NCBI GenBank assembly: GCA_963737155.1
Contig: CAVTRN010000002.1
Location: forward strand, 1,408,001 to 1,472,000
Reading direction: 5' to 3'
Origin: Nitrospirota bacterium
GTDB taxonomy: Bacteria > Nitrospirota > UBA9217
DNA: 64,000 nt
The notes under the pieces were generated by a model. It was not told the DNA's origin. It made no database searches and saw nothing but the letters and a program-made list of their open reading frames with translations. Of this stretch, positions 1-49,291 are shown in pieces; the stretch's first letter is position 1; each line of letters starts with the position of its first letter. Both the position numbers and the translations under genes were made by a program.

Positions 1-485
1 GCCGTTACCACGCAGATATTGGGGCCCTTTGCGCCATACCTGATGGAAAGAATACCGGCCGCTTCGTTGATAATGAGCATGGGGATGAAGAATGGGGTGA
101 TTTTCCGGTATCCGCGTTCGAGGTATATCTTGTGATATTTCTCGATGGCAGGAAGTCCGCCCATGCCGGAGCTGACCATGATACCGACGCGTTCGGCGTT
201 CTCCGGCGTGATTTTGATCCCCGAAGTATCCACGGCCATCTGGCTTGCGGCGATCGCCAGATGGATAAAGCGGTCCATTTTCTTTATTTCTTTCAGCTCG
301 ATATAATTTTCCGGCACAAAACCATGGATATCGCCGGCAATCTGCGTCGGAATGCTTTTGTCATCGAACCGAGTTATAGGACCGATTCCCGAATTCCCGT
401 TGATCAAGCCCGTCCAGCTTGTTTCCGTGTCAAGCCCGACCGGCGTGATCATGCCGATGCCGGTGACCACTACTCTTCTCTTCAA
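1..485 (-). CDS. fabF: Beta-ketoacyl-ACP synthase II (5' part; runs off the window)
   Basis: Not in ORF track. Manual translation from TTG at 485 (RBS CAGGAGG upstream): MKRRVVVTGIGMITPVG...RKITPFFIPMLIINEAAG...GAKGPNICVVTA; follows acpP. Confidence 0.95.
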   Translation of the reverse strand, partial: MKRRVVVTGIGMITPVGLDTETSWTGLINGNSGIGPITRFDDKSIPTQIAGDIHGFVPENYIELKEIKKMDRFIHLAIAASQMAVDTSGIKITPENAERVGIMVSSGMGGLPAIEKYHKIYLERGYRKITPFFIPMLIINEAAGILSIRYGAKGPNICVVT

Positions 486-509
486 CGATGAATCCTCCTG
501 GATAAAAAT

Positions 510-566
510 CCGAAAAGCCAAAAAATCCGCTCTCGCGTTTGCGGGATGGGTCTTCTGGCTTTTGGA
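510..566 (-). terminator. Probable intrinsic terminator/attenuating hairpin between acpP and fabF
   Basis: AAAAGCCA...CCGC-loop-GCGG...TGGCTTTT imperfect stem with T-runs on the minus strand. Confidence 0.45.
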
Positions 567-611: not shown

Positions 612-848
612 TTATTTTTGTTTTGCCTTGATGTAATCCGCTGCATTCTGGACAGTTGCGATCTTTTCAGCATCTTCATCAGGAATTTCGATGCCGAATT
701 CCTCTTCAAGTGCCATAACCAGTTCCACTGTGTCGAGTGAATCGGCACCAAGATCGTTCACGAATGAGGCCTCAGGTTTCACATCTCCTTCGGGTACGCC
801 GAGCTGCTCAGAAATGATTTTTTTTACTTTTGCGTCTATATCTGCCAT
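612..848 (-). CDS. acpP: Acyl carrier protein
   Basis: [20 protein letters not shown] phosphopantetheine motif; start set at ATG 848, 6 nt from AGGAGG. Confidence 0.97.
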
Positions 849-924
849 TGTCATCCTCCTCCGGTAATGTGTCTATCTATGAGCCTCATGTATTTGATTC
901 ATATTATTTAAATTAGATGGACTT

Positions 925-1665
925 CTACATGTACATTCCACCGTTCACGTGGATGACCTGACCGGTGATGTACGATGCCCACGGAGAAGCTAGGAAGCGG
1001 ACCGCGTTCGCGACATCTTCCGGCGTACCGAGTTTCCCCATGGGGATCTGTTTTGCGAGTTCCTGCCGGACATTCTCGGTTAGGGCTTGCGTCATTGCGG
1101 TTTCAATAAACCCCGGTGCAACGGCATTGGCCGTGATATTGCGGTTTGCATATTCCCGGGCAATAGTCTTGGTAAGACCGATGAGGCCGGCTTTGGATGC
1201 AACGTAATTCGCCTGGCCCGCGTTCCCCATGGCACCGACGATAGAGGCGATGTTAATGATGGTGCCTGATCTCTGTTTTGTCATGTATTTCAGAGCGGCT
1301 TTCGCGCAAAGAAAGGCGCCTTTCAAATTTATGCTGAGCACCAGATCCCAATCTTCGTCCTTCATCCGGAGAATGAGACCGTCGCGGGTGATACCAGCGT
1401 TGTTCACCAAGATGTCCACCCTGCCGAAATTTTCTACGACCTGTTCCATCATAGCGGTTACATCCGCGGACACGGCAACATTGGCCTTGAGAGCCAAGGT
1501 TTTTTTCCCTTTAGCCGCTATGTCCGCAGCGGTCTTTTGCGCCGCCTCGAGGTTGACGTCGCAAAGCGCGACATCGGCGCCATCATTCGCGAGCGCGAGC
1601 GTGATATCCCTGCCGATCCCCTGTGCCGCACCTGTGACAAGAGCTACTTTTCCGCTGAGACTCAT
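925..1665 (-). CDS. fabG: 3-oxoacyl-ACP reductase
   Basis: TGAAQGIG, NNAGITRD, YVASK and ITGQVIHVNGGM SDR motifs; fab operon context. Confidence 0.97.
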   Translation of the reverse strand: MSLSGKVALVTGAAQGIGRDITLALANDGADVALCDVNLEAAQKTAADIAAKGKKTLALKANVAVSADVTAMMEQVVENFGRVDILVNNAGITRDGLILRMKDEDWDLVLSINLKGAFLCAKAALKYMTKQRSGTIINIASIVGAMGNAGQANYVASKAGLIGLTKTIAREYANRNITANAVAPGFIETAMTQALTENVRQELAKQIPMGKLGTPEDVANAVRFLASPWASYITGQVIHVNGGMYM

Positions 1666-1740: not shown

Positions 1741-2673
1741 TTAAATTCCCAGAGCGCCAAGCGTGACATTCATGCTCTTTCTGTCTTCCACGTTCAACAC
1801 TTTTGCATCTTGTGCAATTTTTTTCACCAGGGAGGAGAGCACCTTGCCGGGCCCGATTTCGATGAAGGTGTCGAATCCCCGGGAAATCATGTTCCTGATT
1901 GAATCTTCCCAGTAAAGCGGCGAACTGATCTGCTTTATGAGCGATTGCCGTAGATCGGAGGCTTTCTCCAAAAACTTGGCATCCGCGTTGTTCACAATCG
2001 GAATGTTGAGGTCGCTGAGAACGACTTTTTCAAGTTCTTTTTCGAGCCGTTCACTGGCTTTTTTCATCATTATGCTATGCGATGGAACGCTTACCATCAA
2101 AGGGACTACTTTTTTTGCTCCTGCGGCTTTGGCGAGTTCCATGGCTTTTTCCACGGCCTGCTTTTCACCGGCAATGACGATCTGGCCAGGCGAGTTGTAA
2201 TTTGCAGGGGCAACTATACCATTTTTGGCAGCTTCAAGGCAAGTTTTTTCTACGTCGCTTCGCTCCATGCCCAGAATTGCGGCCATGAGTCCTGCTCCCG
2301 ATGGCACGGCTTCCTGCATGTACCTGCCTCGCTTTCTGACCAGCGCAATTGCGTCTTTGAGCTCAAATCCGCCCGCAGCGGTAATTGCCGTAAATTCTCC
2401 GAGACTATGGCCGACGGCCGCTTCAGCGGTTAAGCCTCTACGTTCTAGGGGCCTCAGGATCGCAATGCTTGCCGCGAGAATCGCCGGCTGAGTGTTTTCT
2501 GTCATGTTCAGCTGCTCAAGAGGTCCGGCCATGCACAGATGAACAAGATCATAACCTAGTACGGTACTGGCAACGTCGAATACCTCTTTCGACTCGCGGT
2601 AATATTCGATGAATTCCTTTGCCATGCCAGCATACTGAGATCCTTGGCCGGGGAACATAAACGCAATTTTCAT
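1741..2673 (-). CDS. fabD: Malonyl-CoA:ACP transacylase
   Basis: FPGQGSQ, GHSLGE, ANYNSPGQ, EIGPGKVL motifs. Confidence 0.97.
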   Translation of the reverse strand: MKIAFMFPGQGSQYAGMAKEFIEYYRESKEVFDVASTVLGYDLVHLCMAGPLEQLNMTENTQPAILAASIAILRPLERRGLTAEAAVGHSLGEFTAITAAGGFELKDAIALVRKRGRYMQEAVPSGAGLMAAILGMERSDVEKTCLEAAKNGIVAPANYNSPGQIVIAGEKQAVEKAMELAKAAGAKKVVPLMVSVPSHSIMMKKASERLEKELEKVVLSDLNIPIVNNADAKFLEKASDLRQSLIKQISSPLYWEDSIRNMISRGFDTFIEIGPGKVLSSLVKKIAQDAKVLNVEDRKSMNVTLGALGI

Positions 2674-2694
2674 GAAATAACCCTGATATTAATT

Positions 2695-2765
2695 CAGCCG
2701 CAGATTTATACAGGTGCACGCAGATTTCCTTCGTTCCGACAGTCATTTTCTGCGGTTATCTGCTG
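2695..2765. repeat. Intergenic inverted short tandem repeat (CGCAGATTT type)
   Basis: CGCAGATTT at 2699 and 2719 facing TCTGCGG/ATCTGCTG at 2749-2765. Confidence 0.5.
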
Positions 2766-2776
2766 CCAAAAAATTC

Positions 2777-3967
2777 TCATCCTCTCATTTCACGGATTTT
2801 CTTGATCATGATCGGAACAACTTCATGCACATCGCCAACAATGCCATAAGTGGCGACGTTAAAGATAGGCGCATCGGGATCCCTATTGATAGCCACGATG
2901 ACATCTGATGACTGCATACCGGCGACATGCTGGACTGCTCCGGAGATTCCGCAGGCGATATAGAGTTTGGGACAGACGGTTTTTCCTGTCTGTCCCACCT
3001 GGTGGGGATAAGGGATCCATCCTTCATCCACCGCTCCCCTAGTGGCTGCAACAGCGCCTCCTAGCACTTTTGCCAGCTCTTCAATCAGCTGGAAATTCGC
3101 GGCATTGCCGAGGCCGCGCCCTCCGGCCACGATGATGTCTGCCTCGCAGATGTTCACGGTTTCGCCCAGTGCTTCCACCGTTTTAATGACCTTGGTGCGC
3201 AGATTGTCTGACTGTGAGTACTTGATATCGATAATGTCACCTGTCCGGGAATCATCGCGAGGCGAGGGTTTCATAACTTTATGTCTGACTGTTGCCATTT
3301 GGGGGCGATGATTCGGTGTGACGATGGTAGCCATAATATTGCCGCCGAAGGCCGGGCGGGTCTGATGCAAGTTTCCGGTTTCCGCATCGATGTCGAGCAT
3401 GGTGCAATCGGCGGTAAGGCCGGTGCCAAGTGCTGAAGCGACTTTAGGAAAGAATGACCGGCCAATGGCTGTCGCGCCGGCGAGGATGATCTCGGGTTTG
3501 TGCTGTTTCGCGAGAGTGGTTAGGATCGCGGCATAGGAGTCATCATTGAAATCCTTCAGTGCAGCGTTGTCCGCTACATAGACGATGTCGGCTCCGTGCG
3601 CTATAAGGTCCTTAACCTGTCCCTTAATTCCGTGGCCGATAAAGACAGCGGATAGTTTGGTTTCCTTTTTGCCGGCGAGCTTCCTACCTTCCCCGAGAAG
3701 TTCCAGCGCGACGCTTGAGATGTCTCCCTTATGTTGTTCGGCGAAAACCCATACGCCCTTGTATGCCGAATGATCGACAGCAGGCGTTGCATCCTCACCG
3801 GTTCGCTCAATGGCCTTGAATTCGCAGACTTCAATGCAGGCACCGCACATGGTGCATGCTTCGGTAATATAGGCCTTGCCGTCGCGCATCTCGATTGCGC
3901 CAAACGGGCATGCAATTACGCACTTTTCGCAGGCTGTGCAGGTATCGGATATAATACGAACACTCAC
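2777..3967 (-). CDS. etfA: Electron transfer flavoprotein alpha subunit with N-terminal 2x[4Fe-4S] ferredoxin domain
   Basis: CTACEKCVIACP and CTMCGACIEVC motifs, then GLTADC, RPAFGGN, PQMATVR, QVGQTG, GISGAVQH; GTG 3967 with AAGGAG RBS. Confidence 0.95.
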   Translation of the reverse strand: MSVRIISDTCTACEKCVIACPFGAIEMRDGKAYITEACTMCGACIEVCEFKAIERTGEDATPAVDHSAYKGVWVFAEQHKGDISSVALELLGEGRKLAGKKETKLSAVFIGHGIKGQVKDLIAHGADIVYVADNAALKDFNDDSYAAILTTLAKQHKPEIILAGATAIGRSFFPKVASALGTGLTADCTMLDIDAETGNLHQTRPAFGGNIMATIVTPNHRPQMATVRHKVMKPSPRDDSRTGDIIDIKYSQSDNLRTKVIKTVEALGETVNICEADIIVAGGRGLGNAANFQLIEELAKVLGGAVAATRGAVDEGWIPYPHQVGQTGKTVCPKLYIACGISGAVQHVAGMQSSDVIVAINRDPDAPIFNVATYGIVGDVHEVVPIMIKKIREMRG

Positions 3968-4060
3968 TGGGAACTCCTTGAAATTAGAATGCATCTAGCG
4001 GATTGCAGATGAAAGCCTGAAACGTTTTGCATCCAAGGTTTTGGCTTTATATGTCTTCTG

Positions 4061-4846
4061 CTAAATCAGCGACTGCTCTTTCAACTTCCGGACGAGCGTC
4101 GTTATCTGATCTTCCATATTTCCGGTCAGTATTTCTCTCTGTCCGCGGGGAGCAGGAGGGAATATCCTGACAACTTTCGTCGGCGACCCTTTCAACCCGC
4201 ATTTGTTCTCGTCCGCATTTATGTCTTTTGCGTTCCAAATCGTCACTTTGAGGCTTTTTGCTTTCATCTTGCCCCTGAGCGAGGGAACTCTAGGCTGGTT
4301 GATCTCCTTCACGACTGAAATAAGCGCGGGCAGGGACGTCTCAACCACGTCATGACCTTCGTCCATGAGACGCTCGACCACCATCTTATATCCCTTGACC
4401 TGTTCGATCTTCCTTATATAAGCGACAAAGGGGATGCCGAGCATGTCGGCGGTCTCGGGACCGACTTGAGCTGTATCGCCATCGATGGCCTGCTTACCGG
4501 CGATGATGAGGTCGAAGTCACCCAATTTTCTGATCCCCTGAGAAAGGGCGTAGGACGTGGCCCACGTATCGGCTCCCGCAAAGGACCTGTCGGACAGAAG
4601 AACCGCGTCGTCAACGCCCAGGGAGACGGCTTCCTTGAGCGCCTCTGCAGCCTGAGGCGGGCCCATAGTGAATGCGGTTACTTTGCCGCCATGTTTTTCA
4701 CGGAGTCGAAGGGCCTCTTCGATGGCATACATATCATAGGGATTGATGATGCTCGGCACACCATCGCGTATGAGCGTATTGGTTTCACGGTTGATCTTAA
4801 CTTCCGATGTATCCGGTACCTGTTTGACAAGTACTACGATATGCAT
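4061..4846 (-). CDS. etfB: Electron transfer flavoprotein beta subunit
   Basis: KQVPDT, DRSFAGADTWATSYAL, GKQAIDGDTAQVGP, GLKGSPTKV. Confidence 0.96.
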   Translation of the reverse strand: MHIVVLVKQVPDTSEVKINRETNTLIRDGVPSIINPYDMYAIEEALRLREKHGGKVTAFTMGPPQAAEALKEAVSLGVDDAVLLSDRSFAGADTWATSYALSQGIRKLGDFDLIIAGKQAIDGDTAQVGPETADMLGIPFVAYIRKIEQVKGYKMVVERLMDEGHDVVETSLPALISVVKEINQPRVPSLRGKMKAKSLKVTIWNAKDINADENKCGLKGSPTKVVRIFPPAPRGQREILTGNMEDQITTLVRKLKEQSLI

Positions 4847-4863
4847 GCGATTTCTCCGAAATC

Positions 4864-4933
4864 GAGCTTGAAAAGTCTAATGAGTCTAATGTATTGTTCG
4901 TTTTTATTACTCTTCAGACTCTATGAATTCTCA
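4864..4933. repeat. Intergenic inverted nonamer repeat (GAGTCTAAT type)
   Basis: gagcttgaa-aagtctaat-gagtctaat facing ttactcttc-agactctat-gaattctca. Confidence 0.5.
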
Positions 4934-4947
4934 GATGTTCGACTCCT

Positions 4948-6105
4948 TTACTTCTGCCTTGTAACTTCCTTGATCATGTCGAGCGCAATGACGTTCCGCT
5001 GAATCTGGTTGGTGCCCTCATATATCTGTAGGATTTTCGCGTCGCGCATCATTTTCTCGACGGGGTATTCCCTCATATAACCTGAACCACCCATGATCTG
5101 GACCGCATCAGTCGTTACTTTCATCGCAGTGTCTGTTGCAAAGAGCTTGGCCATGGCTGAAGCACGGGAGACATCTTTGGCGCCGGTGTCCACGAAGCGT
5201 GCCACCGAATAGACGAGCGACCGGGCCGCTTCGGTCATGGTTTGCATGTCTGCCAGCATGTGCTGGATGGCTTGGAAGGACGTAATAGGCTGGCCGAACT
5301 GGACTCGCTGTTTGGCAAACTTGATCGCTTCGTCGATGGCCCCCTGAGCTACACCAACTCCCTGGGCGCCTACACCTGTCCGGGAACTGTCAAGGGTCTT
5401 CATGGCGACGATGAAACCCATGCCTTCCTTTGCGATGAGATTTTCCTTGGGGATACGGCAATTGCTGAAAATGAGTTCGGTTGTGGATGAAGCCCGGATT
5501 CCCATTTTGTTCTCTTTTTTCCCGAAGGTGAATCCAGGAGTGCCCTTTTCGACGATGAAGGCCGATGCTCCCCGGGCGCCCTTCGATCTGTCGGTAATGG
5601 CAATGATAGTGTAAATTCCTGCCTCGCCGCCGTTCGTGATCCACTGTTTGGTGCCATTTAGCACATACTCATTTCCTTCGAGATTCGCAGTGGTTTGAAC
5701 GCCACCGGCGTCGCTGCCGGCATTCGCCTCGGTGAGGCCGAAGGCTACGAAACGCTTCCCCGATGCGATATCGGGAAGATATTTCTTCTTATGCGCATCT
5801 GTTCCATAGAGCAGAATGGGGTAGGTGCCGAGTGCGTTTGCCGCATAGCTCGTCGAGACGCCGACACATGCCTTGGAAAGCTCCTCAACGGTGATGCAGA
5901 GTTCCAGGGATTTTTTACCCAGCCCTCCGTACTCTTCGGGGATGTAGAGTGCGAGAAGGTCGGCCTGTGCCAGTGCCTTCATGATGTCCGAAGGGAATTT
6001 GTTGTGTTCGTCGAGCTCGGCGCGTACGGGAACGACCTTCTCAACGGCGATTTGCCGGGCGAGGTCGCGTATCATGATCTGTTCTTCAGTCAGCAAATAG
6101 TCCAT
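4948..6105 (-). CDS. Acyl-CoA dehydrogenase, butyryl-CoA dehydrogenase-like
   Basis: FGLTEANAGSDA, GTKQWITNG, KMGIRAS, RVQFGQPI, QIYEGTNQIQR (catalytic Glu). Confidence 0.93.
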   Translation of the reverse strand: MDYLLTEEQIMIRDLARQIAVEKVVPVRAELDEHNKFPSDIMKALAQADLLALYIPEEYGGLGKKSLELCITVEELSKACVGVSTSYAANALGTYPILLYGTDAHKKKYLPDIASGKRFVAFGLTEANAGSDAGGVQTTANLEGNEYVLNGTKQWITNGGEAGIYTIIAITDRSKGARGASAFIVEKGTPGFTFGKKENKMGIRASSTTELIFSNCRIPKENLIAKEGMGFIVAMKTLDSSRTGVGAQGVGVAQGAIDEAIKFAKQRVQFGQPITSFQAIQHMLADMQTMTEAARSLVYSVARFVDTGAKDVSRASAMAKLFATDTAMKVTTDAVQIMGGSGYMREYPVEKMMRDAKILQIYEGTNQIQRNVIALDMIKEVTRQK

Positions 6106-6147
6106 GGAGCCCTCCGATAACTATGAAAATGAACGATAAGAATACTG

Positions 6148-7128
6148 TTACCATCTCACCAGGGCAGATGCCCAGGTGAGACCTCCACCGAAAGCTTCAA
6201 ACAGGAGGAGATGGTTTTCTTTTATCCTGCCATCGCGGACTGCTTCATCAAGAGCCATCGGAATCGACGCTGCGGACGTATTCCCGTATTTGGGAAGTGT
6301 GAGAACGACTTTTTCCATCGGCATATTGAGACGCTGCGCCATGGCCTTTATGATTCTAAGATTCGCTTGGTGCGGCACGAGGTAGTCGATCTCTTCGGGC
6401 TTGACCTTGTTGTACTCAAGGGCTTCCTGCACGACACCCTCAAGCGCCCGTACAGCAGTTTTGAAAGTTTCGTTGCCTTTCATTTTTATAAAGTGCATCC
6501 GCCTACGGATAGTATCATGGGATGCTGGGTGCTGGGCGCCGCCGGCGGAAACATGAATCAAATCCTGAAGAGAACCATCGGAATGAAGATGGGTCGAGAG
6601 TATTCCTCGCTTGCCGGCATGCCGCTGTATCACGACCGCACCCGCACCGTCTCCGAAAAGAATGCATGTTGTGCGGTCCTCCCAGTCTGTGAACCGCGAA
6701 AGAACTTCTGCCCCGACGAGAAGGATGTTATTATACATGCCGGCGACGATGAATGCACTTGCAACGGACATTCCGTAGATGAACCCGGAGCAGGCAGCAT
6801 AGATGTCGAATGCGGCCGCTTTTTTTGCACCGAGCTTTTCCTGGAGCACGCAGCCCAAGCTTGGCAGGATCATGTCGGGCGTCATCGTGGCCACAAGAAC
6901 AAGGTCAAGTTCGTCCGGACCGAGTCCTGCAGCCTTGAGGGCCTTTTTGCTAGCTTCGTAAGCCAGGTCCGAGGTCGTCTGTCCTTTTTCGGCGATTCTT
7001 CGTTCCTTAATGCCGGTGCGTTCGGTGATCCATTGATCGCTGGTATCTACGAGCTTTTCCAGATCGTGATTGGAAATGACTTTTTTTGGTGCATAGGACC
7101 CGGTTCCTGTTATCAGTGCGTGGACCAT
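6148..7128 (-). CDS. fabH: Beta-ketoacyl-ACP synthase III
   Basis: WITERTGIKERR, AACSGF, PHQANLRI, GNTSAAS, FGGGLTW. Confidence 0.97.
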   Translation of the reverse strand: MVHALITGTGSYAPKKVISNHDLEKLVDTSDQWITERTGIKERRIAEKGQTTSDLAYEASKKALKAAGLGPDELDLVLVATMTPDMILPSLGCVLQEKLGAKKAAAFDIYAACSGFIYGMSVASAFIVAGMYNNILLVGAEVLSRFTDWEDRTTCILFGDGAGAVVIQRHAGKRGILSTHLHSDGSLQDLIHVSAGGAQHPASHDTIRRRMHFIKMKGNETFKTAVRALEGVVQEALEYNKVKPEEIDYLVPHQANLRIIKAMAQRLNMPMEKVVLTLPKYGNTSAASIPMALDEAVRDGRIKENHLLLFEAFGGGLTWASALVRW

Positions 7129-8138
7129 TTGGTTTTGGTAAGCTCCATATTCTTTCCGATGTCATCGCGTATGCGTTTATTGACCTCGCTCATTGCGAGT
7201 TCGGTGGCAACACGGATTGCGTTTTTAATAGCTCGAGCGGACGAGCGGCCGTGACTGATGATGCTGATACCGTTTATGCCGATGAGGGGCGCCCCGCCGT
7301 ATTCCGCGTAATCGACGCGGTGTCTGAGTGAGTTGAAGGCCGGCCGCATCAGCAGATAGCCGAGTTTGTTGATTAAGCTCTTTTCAATGTCCTTGCGGAG
7401 AAACGTCCCAATTGCTTCAGCGACAGCCTCGGAGACCTTGAGGACGACATTTCCGATGAAACCATCGCAAACGATCACGTCCGCTTTACCTGACATGACA
7501 TCGCGTCCTTCGACGTTCCCGATGAAATTCAACGAAGTTTCGGTAAGGAGCTTGAATGCTTCCTTGGTTAATTCGTTACCCTTCGTTTCCTCTTCACCAA
7601 TGGACAAAAGCCCAACTCGAGGATTCGGATTTTTCAGGAGGTACCTGGCATATACATCACCCATGACCGCGAACTGCAAAAGGTGATTCGGTTTGCAATC
7701 AACATTTGCACCCATGTCGAGGATGATGGATGTTCCCGTGATCGTCGGCATGAAAGTGGCTATGGCAGGACGCTCCACGCCTTCAATCCTGCCAAGTACA
7801 AAGAGCGACGTCGACATGGCCGCACCGGTATGGCCCGCGCTGATGACTGCGGATGCTTCTCCGTTTTTCACCAATTCATTGGCTACTCGGATAGATGAGT
7901 CTTTCTTTCTGCGAAAGACCGTGGCGGGAGAATCATGCATGTCCACCACTTCCGTTGCATTCAGAATTTCAAGAGGGAGTACTTTCGCGGACGGGTACTT
8001 GTCGAGTTCTTGCCGGACAAGCTGTTCAATGCCGACAAGGATGATGCCAACTCCCAACTCCTGAGCGGCCAGTACCGAACCCGCAACAATGGCCTGTGGT
8101 GCGTTGTCTCCCCCCATCGTATCAACGGCAATCTTCAT
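7113..8138 (-). CDS. plsX: Phosphate acyltransferase
   Basis: IAVDTMGGDNAP, SAGHTGA, IERPA-like motif, CDGFIGN, YGGAPL, SHGRS. Confidence 0.97.
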   Translation of the reverse strand: MKIAVDTMGGDNAPQAIVAGSVLAAQELGVGIILVGIEQLVRQELDKYPSAKVLPLEILNATEVVDMHDSPATVFRRKKDSSIRVANELVKNGEASAVISAGHTGAAMSTSLFVLGRIEGVERPAIATFMPTITGTSIILDMGANVDCKPNHLLQFAVMGDVYARYLLKNPNPRVGLLSIGEEETKGNELTKEAFKLLTETSLNFIGNVEGRDVMSGKADVIVCDGFIGNVVLKVSEAVAEAIGTFLRKDIEKSLINKLGYLLMRPAFNSLRHRVDYAEYGGAPLIGINGISIISHGRSSARAIKNAIRVATELAMSEVNKRIRDDIGKNMELTKTKWSTH

Positions 8139-8215: not shown

Positions 8216-8398
8216 TTATATCTGTTGAACAGTTACGATCTCGCGGCCATTGTAGGTGCCGCATGACATGCAGGCATGGTGAGGCTTTTTAACTTCCTGA
8301 CACTGTGGGCAGGCCGTTAGATTCGGGGCCTTGAGGTGTTTATGAGTGCGCCTCTTGTCCCGTCGTGATTTGGAATGTCTGTGTTTTGGATTTGCCAT
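8216..8398 (-). CDS. rpmF: 50S ribosomal protein L32 (Zn-binding form)
   Basis: MANPKHRHSKSRRDKRR, CPQC...CMSCG. Confidence 0.97.
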   Translation of the reverse strand: MANPKHRHSKSRRDKRRTHKHLKAPNLTACPQCQEVKKPHHACMSCGTYNGREIVTVQQI

Positions 8399-8417: not shown

Positions 8418-8933
8418 TTATTTTTTTAGTAAATCTTTTAACGCTGAAAATGCACCGAAGTCTCCCGGTGCATTTCGCTGATGACCACATTCTGTTTTAT
8501 TTAGGTCCGTCCCACAGACACTGCAAAGTCCTTTACACCCGGGATTATGCAGCGGTACCATGGGAATGGATATCATCAACTGTTCTTTGATGATATCCAA
8601 AGGTTCAATTTCATCGCCATCGTAAAACTCCATGTCCATTTCGCCGCTGACAAGTTCATATTCGCCATCGGTGTCAATGGAATTTATCGGTGCAAGGTCG
8701 AAATTTAATTCCGTATCAATGTCAAAAGTGAAGCGCTCCAAGCATCGGCTGCATTCCAGTAGGGGCTGGGCCTTTACCTGCCCTGAGATATGCAGAATGC
8801 CGCCTTTCATCGGTTTGATGCTGAAAACAGCTGTAAATGAAGTAGATTTTGTCCCAGTATCGAATAGATCGATCGGCTGCCCAAGCTTCAGTGTTAGCCC
8901 TTGCGGCGGTATATCATTGATATTGATTACCAT
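8418..8933 (-). CDS. yceD: DUF177/YceD family protein
   Basis: CSRCL and CKGLCSVCG motifs; classic position upstream of rpmF. Confidence 0.9.
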   Translation of the reverse strand: MVININDIPPQGLTLKLGQPIDLFDTGTKSTSFTAVFSIKPMKGGILHISGQVKAQPLLECSRCLERFTFDIDTELNFDLAPINSIDTDGEYELVSGEMDMEFYDGDEIEPLDIIKEQLMISIPMVPLHNPGCKGLCSVCGTDLNKTECGHQRNAPGDFGAFSALKDLLKK

Positions 8934-8963: not shown

Positions 8964-8992
8964 ATTATATAGAGAAGCTCCCGATTTGTCAA
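8964..8992 (-). promoter_or_regulatory. Sigma70 promoter of the yceD-rpmF-plsX-fab operon
   Basis: Perfect TTGACA-17 nt-TATAAT on the minus strand, 30 nt upstream of yceD. Confidence 0.8.
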
Positions 8993-36467: not shown

Positions 36468-36665
36468 ATGGAGCCGATTATGTGCCCCTTTTGCGGAGGC
36501 ACGAATCTCTTTCAAGAAGATGATTACAGTCTCGAGCTTGATTATGAATACTGGACTATACACCACTGGGAGTGTCTGGATTGCGCGCAGTCGTTCGACA
36601 AAATAGAGATTTTGCCGGCGTCAAATTCTTTCGAGGCGATCAATAATGAGAGCACCATTCACTGA
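36468..36665 (+). CDS. Small acidic zinc-ribbon protein
   Basis: CPFCG...ECLDC pair, GGAGG RBS before ATG 36468. Confidence 0.6.
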   Translation: MEPIMCPFCGGTNLFQEDDYSLELDYEYWTIHHWECLDCAQSFDKIEILPASNSFEAINNESTIH

Positions 36666-37823
36666 GCAGGGCATCGATACTTCCCATTCTCCGACCGCCG
36701 TGTTATCTGCCGCCAGCCGTCCCACAGCTGCCGTGATCAATCTTGGAGCTCTTGAACACAATTTTAATGAAGTTGTTCGACGCGCCGCGGGTAGAAAAAT
36801 CCTGGCCGTTGTCAAAGCGCAGGCTTATGGGCACGGCGCAGTAGCTGTATCCAGGCGCCTCCTGGGGCTTGGCGCTTCTATGCTCGCGGTTGCCCTAGTT
36901 GAAGAGGGGATGGAACTTCGCCGTGCCGGCATTGACGCTCCGATTTTGGTGATGGGTGCATTGTTTCCGGAACAGGCCGAGACACTTGCGGCGCTACGAT
37001 TGACGCCAGTTGTTTTCACCATGGATACCGCCCGAGCGTTATCCCGTGCGGCGCAAAAGGTGAAGACAACGGTTTCCGTACATGTGAAAATCGATACTGG
37101 CATGGGCAGAATCGGCATAGCGCCCGAGGAGGCCCCTGAATTCGTTACGCTGCTCCGAAGACTTTCGGGCATAGACGTTCAGGGTTTGATGACGCATTTT
37201 GCCGATGCCGATCTTCGCGAAAAAGAGTTCGCGTCTCAACAGATGGGCCGCTTCGGCGCTCTCGTGCGAAAACTGTCGGAAAGTGGCATACCAGTACCGC
37301 TGATCCATGCAGCAAACAGCGCTGCAGTACTCGATTATCAGCAGGCGCTATTTACGATGGTCAGGCCCGGCCTGATGCTCTATGGGTATAATCCGTTTGA
37401 GACCGGGGCCACGCAGGTTGATCTCTTGCCTGTTCTGTCGCTCGTGACGCGTATAGCCTTTCTCAAAAAGGTCGCCACCGGCATCCCCATCAGCTACGGG
37501 CGGACGTTTGTCACCCAGCGCGAGAGCCTCATTGCAACGCTGCCGATTGGGTATGCAGATGGGTTCAGCAGGGGACTTTCGAACAAGGGTGAAGTGCTGG
37601 TAAGGGGTAGAAATCTGCTCCGGTCGTCGGCCGGATATGCATGGACATGTGCATGGTGGATGTTACTGAGGTTTCCGGCGTTACCGAGGGGGACGACGTT
37701 GTGCTCATCGGAAGCCAGGGCGGAGGGCGGATCACGGCAGAGGATATCGCCGCGAAATCGGGAACCATCCCTTACGAGGTGCTCTGTGGAATCGGTAGTA
37801 GAGTCCCGAGGATTTATCTTTAA
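36646..37823 (+). pseudogene. alr: Alanine racemase with a frameshift near 37610 (or sequencing error)
   Basis: AVVKAQAYGHG, KIDTGMGRIG, SYG, GYADG in one frame; APVVGRICMDM...TIPYEVLCGIGSRVPRIY in the -1 frame from 37611. Confidence 0.85.
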
Positions 37824-38586
37824 AAGTCTGGAGTTCGTTGGCCGCAAAACCACGCTGATTATCTCCCACATCGGCGCCGTCCTTGTTTTTTCCGGACAGA
37901 CGCTCCAAGAGACCCTGAGCACCCCGTTCTACGTCAAGAACCTGGTGAAGCAGATGGAGCAGATTGGCTTTAATTCCGTCCCTGTGGTCCTCACCACCGC
38001 GCTCTCAACAGGGATGGTGCTTGCGTACCAAAGTTATACAGGGTTTAAACGCTTCGGAGCCGAGACGCTGATCGGGACGGTTGTGTCGCTCTCCATGACG
38101 CGGGAATTAGGGCCGGTGCTCACTGGGCTCATGGTTGCCGGCAGAGCAGGCGCTTCCATTGCAGCGGAGCTCGGTACCATGCGCGTGACCGAGCAAATCG
38201 ATGCGCTCTCGACGCTGGCTACGAACCCTATGAAGTATCTTGTGGTGCCACGTTTTCTTGCAAGCACCATTATGATGTTTTTCCTGACCTCGCTCGGCAT
38301 GTTCATCGGCATTACTGGCGGATATTTTGTGGGGGTTAAAGTACTCGGGACAAATCCTGTCACTTACATTAACAACAGTATCAACTATACCGAGGTTACC
38401 GACATCTGGTATGGCCTCGTAAAATCCCTGTTTTTCGGCGCCGTGGTGGGAATCATCAGTTGCTACAAGGGGTTCCACGCGGAAGGAGGCGCCGAGGGAG
38501 TGGGCAAGGCCACGACGGGCGCCGTGGTAGTCTCCTGTATGATGATTCTGATCTTGGATTATTTTCTGTCAGCGCTGTTATGGTGA
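37786..38586 (+). CDS. mlaE: MlaE family ABC permease
   Basis: RELGPVLTGLMVAGRAG, ELGTMRVTEQIDAL, GAEGVGKATT; GTG 37786 with GAGGT RBS inside the alr 3' end. Confidence 0.9.
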   Translation: MESVVESRGFIFKSLEFVGRKTTLIISHIGAVLVFSGQTLQETLSTPFYVKNLVKQMEQIGFNSVPVVLTTALSTGMVLAYQSYTGFKRFGAETLIGTVVSLSMTRELGPVLTGLMVAGRAGASIAAELGTMRVTEQIDALSTLATNPMKYLVVPRFLASTIMMFFLTSLGMFIGITGGYFVGVKVLGTNPVTYINNSINYTEVTDIWYGLVKSLFFGAVVGIISCYKGFHAEGGAEGVGKATTGAVVVSCMMILILDYFLSALLW

Positions 38587-46672: not shown

Positions 46673-49291
46673 ATGGTCCTGACCGAAATTCAGAAGGCTG
46701 CTGTGCGATATCCCGACCATATAGCCGTTCAAATGAAGGTCGGCGATCGATATGAACGCTATACCTATAGGGAGCTTATCAAAGCCATTGCTTCAGTGTC
46801 ACGGTCACTTTCGCAAAGGGGCATTAGCCGCGGTGACCGTCTTGTCCTGCTTTCTGAAAATCGAGTAGAATGGATGATCGCATACCTCGCGATCCTTTCG
46901 CTCGGCGCTGTTGCGGTGCCGCTTGATGCCCAACTGACTGACAAGGAAGTCAGACTTCTCGTGGCCTATTCCGACGCAAAAGCCGTCTTTGTGTCAGATC
47001 AGACACGTCAAAAGATTTTACGAGACAGCGGGCTTTTGATCATCGGATTTGATGAGGGGGAGGAGACGGCCTTTTCCAATTTCCTTGCCGCCTATCCATC
47101 TGCCGCTTTCCCAACTGCATCGGATGCTAGAGAATTTGCAGCGCTCCTGTACACCTCGGGAACCACTGGGGATCCGAAAGGTGTCATGCTATCGCAGGGC
47201 AACCTTGCATCTAATTGCGCGAGCTGTATCAAGCTCAAAATCGTCCAGCCCGATGATAATATGCTGCTGATCCTCCCTCTCCACCACACCTATCCCTCCA
47301 TGGCGTGCATGCTGCTGCCTTTTTCGGTAGGCGCTACCGTCACGATTCTGAACAGCATCAAGGGCCCAGATATTCTCGCATGCATGAAGGAAACGAATGT
47401 CAGTATCCTGCTCGGCGTGCCGCAGTTGTACTCAGGCATGCGTCGAGCTGTCTTTGATGGCATTCAAAAAAAATCCGCTCTCGTCCGTATTTTTATCAAA
47501 TTGCTCCTCACATTGAACGGGCAGCTCCGGCTGCGGCTGGGTGTAAATGTTGGGAAGGTTCTGTTCAGCAAGGTGCATGCCCAGTTCGGACCCAGCTTTA
47601 GGCTGTTTGCAAGCGGCGGCGCCCGGCTAGACGCGGACGTGTACACCGACATGACGAGGCTGGGGTTCACCATCATTGAGGGCTACGGTCTGACTGAAAC
47701 TTCACCGGTTTGCACGTTCAATCCCGTGACCAGACAGAAGGCGGGGTCTATCGGTATCCCGGTCCCCGGTGTGGAGGTACGAATAGTGGACCCCGATGGC
47801 AGTGGCCACGGCGAGCTTGCAATCCGTGGCGCAAACGTCATGCTTGGTTACTACAAAAAACCGCAGGAGACTGCGCAAGTTTTGCGGGATGGTTGGTTTT
47901 ATTCCGGTGACCTTGGATACCAGGACCGGGATGGATATTTTTTCGTCACCGGCCGGTCCAAAGAGATGATTGTGCTCGCGACTGGCAAAAAGATATTTCC
48001 CGAGGAATTGGAAAAGTACTATCGTCAGATTCCATCCATTAAAGAGATCTGCCTCATCCAGGGAGAGCGCGGACTCGAAGCCGCCGTGGTCCCGGACTTC
48101 GATTATCTCCGGAAGATGAACTTGTCCAATTCAAGAGAGACAATCGCCTTCGCAATCGAGGATATTGCCAAGGATCTTCCGTCGTACAAACGGATCACCG
48201 GATTAAAAATATTCAAGGAACCGCTGCCTGTAACGCGTCTTGGCAAAATCAGGCGGACCAAGGTGAAGGTACTGTACAGCCAGTCGGACAAACGGGTTGA
48301 GGAAAAGGTTCAGGCACCCGATACCTGGCCGCAGGCAGATCCGGTAATGAAGAAGCTGATTACCTGTCTTGAGCCATTTTCCGCGAAAAAACAGATCATC
48401 CCAGACGATAACCTGGAGATCGATCTAGGGCTCGATTCGCTTGCTCGTGTTGAAATGGTAGTCAGCATAGAAAAATCGTTCGGCATCAGTCTTCCTGATA
48501 CGTTTGGTTCCGAGGTTTTTACCGTGAAGGACGTTATCCTGAAGATCCAGCAGTTACTGGAAACCGCCGGTGTGGTCGAGTCGGGTAGCAACGTGAAAAT
48601 GACCTGGACCGAGATCCTGTCTCAGGTACCGTCGAAGGAAATTCTCTCACTACTCAAACTCGAACGCGGCGCGATAATTGATACTTTCCGGTATGTATTG
48701 CAGCTCATTCTCAGGATCGTTTTTGCAGTCTACGGCCGGTTGTCGGTGCACGGGCTAGAAAACCTTCCGGGGAAAGGCCCGTTTATCATCGCGCCGAACC
48801 ACCTTAGCCTCGTCGATGCACCGGCAGTAATGGCAGCATTGCCTTGGCCCATCGCATCGCAGACTTTCTCTCTCGGGACAACGGCTTACTTCGGTGGGCC
48901 GGTTTCCTCGAAGATAGCAAGGCTTGTGAATGTGATACCGGTTGACATGGATGCGCGACTCTATAGCGCGATGCAATTATCGGCATATGTACTTCGCCGG
49001 GGCAAGATCCTCTGCATATTTCCCGAAGGCGGTCGGTCACGCGATGGCGGCGTCAAGGATTTCAAAAAAGGAGTCGGCATCATTGCAAAGGAATTAAATA
49101 TCCCGCTCATTCCTGTCGCTATCCAGGGTACTTACGAAATGCTTCCCTCGGGAAAATATATACCGAAACCCGCAAGGGTAACCATCACCATCGGTAAGGC
49201 GATTTATCCCGATTCTATGGATTATGACGAGATCGTAAAAACCGTGTCTCAGGAGATTGTGAAGATGCTGGGACCGAGATCGCGTCCATAG
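46673..49291 (+). CDS. Long-chain acyl-activating (AMP-binding) / carrier domain / PlsC-type acyltransferase fusion
   Basis: YTSGTTGDPKG, EGYGLTE, SGDLG; DLGLDSL carrier motif; NHLSLVD and FPEGGRS acyltransferase motifs. Confidence 0.88.
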   Translation: MVLTEIQKAAVRYPDHIAVQMKVGDRYERYTYRELIKAIASVSRSLSQRGISRGDRLVLLSENRVEWMIAYLAILSLGAVAVPLDAQLTDKEVRLLVAYSDAKAVFVSDQTRQKILRDSGLLIIGFDEGEETAFSNFLAAYPSAAFPTASDAREFAALLYTSGTTGDPKGVMLSQGNLASNCASCIKLKIVQPDDNMLLILPLHHTYPSMACMLLPFSVGATVTILNSIKGPDILACMKETNVSILLGVPQLYSGMRRAVFDGIQKKSALVRIFIKLLLTLNGQLRLRLGVNVGKVLFSKVHAQFGPSFRLFASGGARLDADVYTDMTRLGFTIIEGYGLTETSPVCTFNPVTRQKAGSIGIPVPGVEVRIVDPDGSGHGELAIRGANVMLGYYKKPQETAQVLRDGWFYSGDLGYQDRDGYFFVTGRSKEMIVLATGKKIFPEELEKYYRQIPSIKEICLIQGERGLEAAVVPDFDYLRKMNLSNSRETIAFAIEDIAKDLPSYKRITGLKIFKEPLPVTRLGKIRRTKVKVLYSQSDKRVEEKVQAPDTWPQADPVMKKLITCLEPFSAKKQIIPDDNLEIDLGLDSLARVEMVVSIEKSFGISLPDTFGSEVFTVKDVILKIQQLLETAGVVESGSNVKMTWTEILSQVPSKEILSLLKLERGAIIDTFRYVLQLILRIVFAVYGRLSVHGLENLPGKGPFIIAPNHLSLVDAPAVMAALPWPIASQTFSLGTTAYFGGPVSSKIARLVNVIPVDMDARLYSAMQLSAYVLRRGKILCIFPEGGRSRDGGVKDFKKGVGIIAKELNIPLIPVAIQGTYEMLPSGKYIPKPARVTITIGKAIYPDSMDYDEIVKTVSQEIVKMLGPRSRP

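Follow-up and report, generated by a model that had tools for sequence, protein, structure and literature searches.

We analysed a 64-kb window of a Nitrospirota genome (assembly GCA_963737155.1, contig CAVTRN010000002.1, positions 1,408,001 to 1,472,000) in which an operon for type II fatty acid synthesis includes genes for an acyl-CoA dehydrogenase (ACAD) family flavoenzyme and for both subunits of an electron transfer flavoprotein (EtfB and EtfA). The genome, which we call G000, is 4.84 Mb in 2 contigs and is 100% complete. Enoyl reduction, a classic antibiotic target, is the step that pulls fatty acid synthesis along in bacteria. Because the three genes lie inside the fab operon of an anaerobe whose genome is without the usual enoyl-acyl carrier protein (enoyl-ACP) reductases, their products probably fill this step.

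Organization of the operon

The open reading frame (ORF) listing, Pfam, and NCBIfam agree on the content and order of the operon, which lies on the minus strand and reads promoter-yceD-rpmF-plsX-fabH-ACAD-etfB-etfA-fabD-fabG-acpP-fabF. The trio proper spans 2777 to 6105, within the range 1741 to 7128 that runs from fabD through fabH. From the promoter onwards, the features are as follows.

8964..8992, minus strand: sigma-70-type promoter-like site 5' of yceD (TTGACA-17-TATAAT; matches 12 of 12 consensus positions, and is known from this match alone)
8418..8933, minus strand: yceD, the first gene of the operon (PF02620, 86 bits)
8216..8398, minus strand: rpmF, ribosomal protein L32 (TIGR01031, 79.8 bits, above cut-off)
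7113..8138, minus strand: plsX, phosphate acyltransferase (TIGR00182, 397 bits, above cut-off)
6148..7128, minus strand: fabH, ketoacyl-ACP synthase III (TIGR00747, 449 bits, above cut-off)
4948..6105, minus strand: ACAD-family flavoenzyme, 385 amino acids, with three ACAD Pfam domains; proposed catalytic subunit of an enoyl-thioester (enoyl-ACP) reductase
4061..4846, minus strand: etfB, small Etf subunit, 261 amino acids (PF01012), bifurcating type as judged from its sequence
2777..3994, minus strand: etfA, large Etf subunit with an N-terminal ferredoxin domain, 405 amino acids (Fer4 dicluster, then ETF and ETF_alpha)
3809..3961, minus strand: 2x[4Fe-4S] ferredoxin domain of EtfA, residues 12-62 (Fer4 and Fer4_10 matches)
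1741..2673, minus strand: fabD, malonyl-CoA:ACP transacylase (TIGR00128, 337 bits, above cut-off)
925..1665, minus strand: fabG, ketoacyl-ACP reductase (TIGR01830, 338 bits, above cut-off)
612..854, minus strand: acpP, acyl carrier protein (NF002149, 136 bits, above cut-off)
3..521, minus strand: N-terminal part of fabF, cut by the window edge (TIGR03150, positions 1-159 of 407)

Thus, rpmF and every fab gene that is whole in the window pass the cut-offs of curated equivalog or subfamily models in NCBIfam. The plsX and fabH genes overlap by 16 nt, and the gaps around the trio are 42 nt (fabH-ACAD), 101 nt (ACAD-etfB), 66 nt (etfB-etfA), and 103 nt (etfA-fabD). There are ribosome-binding sites upstream of the start codons of ACAD (GGAGGG, before an ATG) and etfB (GGAG). 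We found no terminator-like site on the minus strand between any of the genes of the operon; weak ones lie inside fabH and etfB only, and a third lies upstream of yceD. Neither kind of site is in excess over shuffled sequences (11 promoter-like sites vs. 9.4 +/- 2.9, and 11 terminator-like sites vs. 10.9 +/- 3.5).

A previous sequence-only reading of the window had described the same gene order on one strand, with gaps of about 40-100 nt, no clear terminator between fabH and the ACAD gene, and a consensus promoter ahead of the operon, and our annotations agree. It had also seen no fabI, fabK, fabL, or fabV in the 64 kb, and we likewise found no enoyl-ACP reductase elsewhere in the window.

The trio resembles electron-bifurcating enoyl-thioester reductases

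The ACAD protein has all three domains of its family, each above the cut-off (PF02771, 119 bits; PF02770, 94 bits; PF00441, 176 bits). Its closest relative with a solved structure is butyryl-CoA dehydrogenase (Bcd) from Clostridioides difficile (5OL2_C, 418 bits), and by eye, the alignment is about 57% identical. The IYEGTNQIQR of ACAD aligns with IYEGTSEVQR of 5OL2_C, so the YEGT motif with the catalytic glutamate is retained. This residue, E363, is invariant across 30 orthologs, and we take it to be the catalytic base, as in Bcd and in short-chain acyl-CoA dehydrogenase (SCAD). ACAD does not reach the cut-off of any ACAD equivalog in NCBIfam (for instance, NF042972, AcrC, gives 473.7 bits vs. 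a cut-off of 640). Within the family of G000, ACAD is more conserved than the adjoining FabH (86-96% vs. 75-94% identity). A complex prediction from alignments for two copies of ACAD with AcpP, which was made without controls, gave a score of 0.00 and counts neither for nor against docking.

When compared with Etfs of solved structure, both subunits are far more similar to the bifurcating kind than to the non-bifurcating kind. EtfB scores 266 bits against CarD (6FAH_B) and 209-240 bits against 7KOE, 5OL2_B, 7QH2_B, and 4KPU_B, versus only 81-91 bits against the non-bifurcating 1EFV, 1EFP, 2A1T, and 1O94. Similarly, EtfA scores 289-409 bits against bifurcating Etfs and about 150 bits against non-bifurcating ones. 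For both subunits, the top match is in the caffeyl-CoA reductase complex (6FAH), which comprises CarC, CarD, and CarE. From residue 11 onward, EtfA aligns with CarE (6FAH_A) from residue 2 onward (409 bits), and both CxxCxxCxxxC motifs of the ferredoxin domain are kept. The Etf scores 325 bits with NF040731, whose cut-off is 445. The motifs that the sequence-only reading had quoted when it likened these proteins to bifurcating Etfs (such as GLKGSPT and RPAFGGN) are present in the translations; we presume that they are tied to the bifurcating type. On this sequence evidence, the Etf is of the electron-bifurcating type (group 2). Given an ACAD, a bifurcating-type EtfB, and a ferredoxin-fused EtfA, we predict that the trio is an enoyl-thioester reductase module of the CarCDE or Bcd-EtfAB type.

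The genome has a separate set of genes for beta-oxidation: two FadB-like genes, ACADs that are 32-35% identical to the ACAD of the fab operon, and a second Etf pair. With its own ACADs and Etf for beta-oxidation, the genome would not need the trio of the fab operon for this purpose.

Known enoyl-ACP reductases were not found in the genome

We searched the whole genome for the known enoyl-ACP reductases and found none. For FabK (TIGR03151), nothing scored above the cut-off of 453 bits. The best match (138 bits) was to a domain within an open frame of 2,792 amino acids (G000:C2:1550084-1556170). This frame has an enoyl-reductase domain of the nitronate monooxygenase (NMO) type, an acyltransferase-like part, and a short-chain dehydrogenase/reductase (SDR) or ketoreductase domain, and it has the appearance of a polyketide synthase (PKS) or a polyunsaturated fatty acid synthase.

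For FabI (NF006369), there were no matches at E <= 1e-25, versus scores of 296-357 bits for the FabI proteins of related genomes. FabI and FabL are SDRs, of which the genome has 15 places; nine ORFs from these were scanned against NCBIfam, and neither FabI nor FabL was among the top families for any of them. We considered whether an SDR remnant at C2:89326-89910 (locus L022; fragment 89341-89865) could be a decayed FabI, and rejected it: it is a classical SDR with internal stops and without the N-terminal Rossmann motif. For FabV (PF12241 and NF010177), there was no match in the genome, and these models were silent in 14 control genomes as well.

ACAD orthologs and FabI or FabK do not co-occur in 41 Nitrospirota genomes

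If the trio replaces FabI and FabK, then the two should have complementary distributions. Among 41 genomes of Nitrospirota, 28 encode an ortholog of ACAD (72-100% identity), and none of these has FabI or FabK. Another 12 have FabI (296-357 bits) and/or FabK above the cut-off (nine with FabI only, two with FabK only, and one with both), and none of these has an ortholog of ACAD. The remaining genome, G011, is 90% complete and lacks ACAD, FabI, FabK, and fabH. Since fabH is also missing, the fab operon was not assembled for this genome, and we do not consider it to be an exception. In other words, ACAD and FabI or FabK at the curated level exclude each other in 40 of the 41 genomes, and the other one lacks an assembled fab operon.

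Other phyla show a similar pattern. None of 17 genomes from other phyla with a fab-linked ortholog has FabI or FabK above the cut-off. We also examined 81 genomes from the phylum of G051, requiring at least 59% identity for an ortholog of ACAD, at least 300 bits for FabI, and a score above the cut-off for FabK. Canonical FabI or FabK was found in 12 of the 42 genomes without ACAD (eight with FabI and four with FabK) and in none of the 39 genomes with it. For 13 of the 42 genomes without ACAD, there was neither a FabI of at least 300 bits nor a match to TIGR03151 at E <= 1e-40; these genomes either are incomplete or use yet another reductase.

ACAD and Etf are linked to fab genes across phyla

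The order plsX-fabH-ACAD-etfB-etfA is retained in 26 of 30 loci from relatives of G000. In G027 and G036, which belong to two other families, ACAD (81% identical) has been relocated beside pmbA/tldD. The block etfB-etfA-fabD is still intact in these two genomes, and its EtfA is the sole EtfA that we found there with the query that we used. Hence, fabD stays adjacent to etfBA even in genomes whose ACAD has moved.

To look beyond these relatives, we scanned one genome per species. This gave more than 593 relatives, and for the best 80 loci, we counted fab genes within 7 kb. There were fab genes near 37 of these 80 orthologs. Their record titles name metagenome-assembled genomes of Nitrospirota, Thermodesulfobacteriota, Margulisiibacteriota, Saganbacteria, Omnitrophota, Planctomycetia, Clostridia, and others. 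Gene orders in other phyla include plsX-fabH-fabD-fabG-acpP-fabF-rnc-ACAD-etfB-etfA, fabG-acpP-fabF-ACAD-etfB-x-etfA, and plsX-ACAD-fabG-acpP with a ferredoxin-fused Etf elsewhere. Across a total of 138 loci, many of which were seen with flanks of only 1.5 kb, we found both fab and etf genes near 70 orthologs, fab genes near 17, etf genes near 19, and neither near 32. Thus, the family has conserved the synteny between ACAD-etfBA and fab genes, which other phyla show again in rearranged orders.

In a group of loci of the Desulfobacterota type (L108, L221, L226, L229, L230, L234-L238, L240, and L241), ACAD is in a fab operon without an adjoining Etf, as in plsX-ACAD-fabG-acpP. Nine of 12 genomes that we checked from this group encode a ferredoxin-fused EtfA, along with etfB, elsewhere; in the other three, the best match to EtfA has no ferredoxin domain.

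The orthologs are 66-96% identical across phyla. In a tree of 140 rows from FastTree, all 136 orthologs group into a single clade (support 99, stem 0.41), which is distinct from the other ACADs of the genome and from the ACADs of genomes with FabK, which are 44-46% identical. Fab-linked orthologs are found on both basal and derived branches of this clade.

A proposed bifurcating enoyl-ACP reductase

We think it reasonably probable that ACAD, EtfB, and the ferredoxin-fused EtfA form a complex like Bcd-EtfAB or CarCDE that serves as the enoyl-ACP reductase of type II fatty acid synthesis, in place of FabI or FabK. The sequence-only reading had proposed such a replacement, and comparative genomics supports it in four respects: the absence of the known reductases, the linkage to fab genes, the complementary distribution, and the type of the Etf. 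In the full-text literature, whose coverage leaves out subscription-only papers, we found no proposal of an enoyl-ACP reductase made up of an ACAD and an Etf.

By this proposal, NADH would reduce the FAD of EtfB. One electron would then pass via the FAD of EtfA to the FAD of ACAD, which would reduce trans-2-enoyl-ACP to acyl-ACP. The other electron, at low potential, would reach ferredoxin by way of the 2x[4Fe-4S] domain of EtfA. The sum would be 2 NADH + oxidised ferredoxin + enoyl-ACP -> 2 NAD+ + reduced ferredoxin + acyl-ACP, so that enoyl reduction by the trio would possibly run in an energy-saving mode. Here we infer the ACP thioester as the substrate, the direction of the reaction, and the bifurcation to ferredoxin.

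To our knowledge, the bacterial enoyl-ACP reductases comprise four classes, all of which are single NAD(P)H-dependent proteins. More tentatively, and doubting it slightly more than we believe it, we suggest that the trio represents a fifth and mechanistically unrelated class: a three-subunit bifurcating complex of ACAD, EtfB, and (ferredoxin)EtfA that would yield reduced ferredoxin in each elongation cycle. This class would be widespread in anaerobic phyla, and its link to fab genes is apparently old within the clade.

Several observations speak against these proposals. First, five of 15 genomes whose ortholog is not linked to fab genes also have a canonical reductase: four Bacillota (G058, G061, G065, and G072) have FabI (317-375 bits), and G071 has FabK. 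This co-occurrence implies that the ortholog is not always the sole reductase. In these five genomes, the ortholog is encoded by a stand-alone ACAD-etfBA among housekeeping genes rather than butyrate genes, and four of the five orthologs are in one subclade. Second, some genomes with ACAD have weaker matches to the families of the known reductases. In the phylum of G051, five of the genomes with ACAD have intermediate scores with the FabI model (154-239 bits) and 17 match TIGR03151 with 141-345 bits (for instance, G147 with 345 and G146 with 319); outside of Nitrospirota, NMO-family matches of 141-320 bits occur in 11 of the 17 fab-linked genomes. Third, the nearest characterised ACADs are short-chain CoA enzymes (344-418 bits for Bcd and SCAD vs. 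326 bits for medium-chain acyl-CoA dehydrogenase), so the enzyme would need to take chains from C4 to C16-18 on ACP. Fourth, genomes that are kin do not count as independent samples, so few evolutionary events underlie the complementarity. Also, the absence of FabV is weakly grounded because the searches for it had no positive control, and an unrecognised reductase, such as a generic quinone-oxidoreductase-like protein of the medium-chain dehydrogenase/reductase (MDR) type, could be at work. More broadly, all of the support for the proposals comes from comparative genomics.

A FabX ortholog and possible electron disposal

The genome also contains a stand-alone gene of the NMO family (C1:1116430-1117560; locus L007/L192), and we asked if this could be a hidden FabK. 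Relative to two close relatives, a 1-nt deletion splits the gene into frames of 111 and 278 amino acids, due to either an assembly error or a real frameshift. Intact orthologs of 373 amino acids (74-93% identity) are found in 21 of 24 genomes from the family. The stand-alone gene scores just 76 bits with TIGR03151, and its orthologs match FabX from Helicobacter pylori (7E1Q) over its full length with E = 2e-66, versus 1e-14 to 1e-16 for FabKs. According to the FabX paper, FabX is an acyl-ACP dehydrogenase/isomerase that makes unsaturated fatty acids, and its [4Fe-4S] domain (C300, C304, C308, and C320) stands where FabK has its NAD(P)H motif (PMC8626469). The orthologs have a cluster of cysteines at this place, and the true FabKs of related genomes do not. 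As judged from these alignments, the gene is an ortholog of FabX and not FabK. This suggests that these strict anaerobes synthesize unsaturated fatty acids anaerobically by "backtracking."

NMO-family genes are also found within ACAD-Etf clusters. In three clusters from metagenome-assembled genomes of the Margulisbacteria type, a gene of 320-326 amino acids lies between acpP and fabF (L124:12197-13171, L139:6309-7271, and L104:12167-13147). These proteins have the motif C-x2-C-x3-C-x4-C, with four cysteines as in FabX, and match FabX (143 bits, partial) about as well as they match FabKs (127-137 bits, near full length). They may be a shorter subfamily of the FabX type.

These genes raise another explanation for the trio, which we consider to be unlikely but the one to be taken most seriously: that it is tied to fatty acid synthesis without being the general enoyl reductase. 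Instead, it would take electrons from the FabX-type acyl-ACP dehydrogenase/isomerase during anaerobic unsaturated fatty acid synthesis, or it would itself dehydrogenate acyl-ACP, and an unrecognised enzyme would reduce the enoyl group. The retention of FabX in the lineage and the four-cysteine genes of the three clusters are consistent with this explanation, as is PMC8626469, which gives oxygen as the sole known electron acceptor for H. pylori FabX. However, FabX is also present in G025, which has FabK and no ortholog of ACAD, so the distribution of FabX does not track that of ACAD, while FabI and FabK track it inversely. Also, the ACAD-bearing families f3 and f4 contain only homologs of FabX that are 40-46% identical, and in G000 itself the gene is frameshifted. 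Finally, the enoyl-reduction step of 28 genomes would go unfilled under this explanation.

Other explanations for the trio

If the trio is not the enoyl-ACP reductase, then the enoyl group might be reduced by an unrecognised reductase of another family, such as an MDR protein or a trans-acting enoyl-reductase domain of the PKS-like gene, and the role of the trio would be open. Seven proteins in the genome exceed the Pfam cut-off for MDRs, and an eighth place is below it; they are of generic quinone-oxidoreductase or alcohol-dehydrogenase types, with no specific family for any of them. We made a cross-genome profile for one of the seven, C1:391929-392951, which is the most similar to enoyl reductases. 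We did not find it in f3, f4, and f11, which are families with ACAD, and homologs are present in the FabI-bearing families f5, f6, f8, and f9, so we rejected it as the true enoyl reductase. As for the NMO-type domain of the PKS-like gene, such a domain within a very long frame is found in only three of the 41 Nitrospirota genomes (G000, G018, and G024). Overall, we view a reductase from another family as quite unlikely.

Alternatively, as the sequence-only reading suggested, the trio could make saturated short or branched acyl-CoA primers for the adjacent FabH, for instance by converting crotonyl-CoA to butyryl-CoA. This would fit with the position of the trio directly downstream of fabH and with the solved ACADs that are closest to it, which are butyryl-CoA dehydrogenases. 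But the genes ahead of the trio in other phyla are acpP-fabF-rnc or fabG-acpP-fabF instead of fabH, and several Thermodesulfovibrionales keep the Etf with fabD and have ACAD elsewhere. Furthermore, no gene for crotonase, 3-hydroxyacyl-CoA dehydrogenase, or thiolase lies beside the trio or beside the stand-alone copies, and the genomes would still be missing an enoyl-ACP reductase. We consider this role to be very unlikely.

It is highly improbable that the trio is an ordinary catabolic or fermentative Bcd-EtfAB of energy metabolism whose position has no functional meaning: despite its family, its similarity to C. difficile Bcd, and the orthologs that stand alone or co-occur with FabI, fab genes are repeatedly linked to it, in differing orders, across phyla, the distribution is complementary to that of FabI and FabK, butyrate-pathway neighbours were not found, and the genome has separate ACADs and a second Etf for beta-oxidation.

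Other genes in the window

Elsewhere in the window, there is another lipid gene on the plus strand (46673-49291), which encodes a protein of 872 amino acids with an AMP-binding domain and a C-terminal acyltransferase domain, similar to the acyl-ACP synthetase/acyltransferase Aas. An ORF of 646 amino acids (36646-38586, plus strand) combines alanine racemase domains (residues 31-323) with an MlaE permease (residues 434-643). Either two genes are fused here or the frame reads through from one into the other; genes like those for MlaF and MlaD lie downstream. The sequencing runs that matched the genome are all DNA from soil metagenomes, with shares of at most 0.24, and no RNA run was among them.

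Implications

If the trio is an enoyl-ACP reductase, this would account for the reductase that is missing from entire lineages of anaerobes, including Thermodesulfovibrionia, many genomes of the Desulfobacterota type, Omnitrophota, Margulisbacteria, and others. Energy-limited cells would regain low-potential electrons, as reduced ferredoxin, from lipid synthesis. Genome-scale models would need to change, because the genes of the trio are now annotated as acyl-CoA dehydrogenase and are counted as beta-oxidation or butyrate metabolism. The interpretation of lipid hydrogen-isotope signals in these organisms might shift as well.

Comparison with known systems

In its architecture, the trio is most like CarCDE from Acetobacterium woodii (6FAH), which also combines an ACAD-family reductase with EtfB and an EtfA that has an N-terminal two-cluster ferredoxin domain. 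The matches to CarD and CarE are nearly full length; CarC (312 bits) is not the closest ACAD, as Bcd scores higher. CarCDE has its role in caffeate respiration, with a CoA ester as its substrate. In contrast, the trio sits in the fab operon of genomes that lack an enoyl-ACP reductase.

The Bcd-EtfAB complexes (5OL2 from C. difficile, and 4L1F and 4KPU from Acidaminococcus fermentans) include the closest solved ACAD, keep the glutamate of the YEGT motif, and have a bifurcating-type Etf. Their chemistry, the reduction of trans-2-enoyl thioesters, is also what we would expect from the trio given the sequence relationship. Unlike these complexes, the trio has no crt, hbd, or thl beside it, and its EtfA has the extra ferredoxin domain, so that the alignments to 5OL2_A and 4KPU_A begin at residue 78-81 of the query. 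Also, the orthologs of its ACAD form their own clade, and the proposed substrates are acyl-ACPs of all chain lengths.

FabI, FabK, FabL, and FabV share the proposed reaction and pathway position of the trio, and organisms with FabK have fabK in a similar slot of the operon. But FabI and FabL (SDRs), FabK (a TIM-barrel FMN protein), and FabV (a long SDR) have no sequence relationship to the trio, and these single proteins differ from what we predict to be a three-subunit complex with three FADs and iron-sulfur clusters.

Some ACADs act on carrier proteins: MbtN is an acyl-ACP dehydrogenase, and there are prolyl dehydrogenases that act on peptidyl carrier proteins (4IRN). Such enzymes demonstrate that substrates bound to an ACP or PCP are compatible with the ACAD fold. 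They are distant from our ACAD, which scores 85 bits with the MbtN model (cut-off 700) and 195 bits with 4IRN, and they are dehydrogenases of secondary metabolism. With acyl-ACP as its substrate, the flavoenzyme FabX from H. pylori (7E1Q) catalyses the enoyl-reductase step in reverse, and its orthologs are found in the lineage and inside some of the ACAD-Etf fab clusters. However, as described in PMC8626469, FabX is an NMO-family protein with FMN and [4Fe-4S] and has its role in unsaturated fatty acid synthesis, and it lies outside the trio. Compared to all of these systems, the trio would put an enzyme architecture that is already known to use in an essential role that is new.

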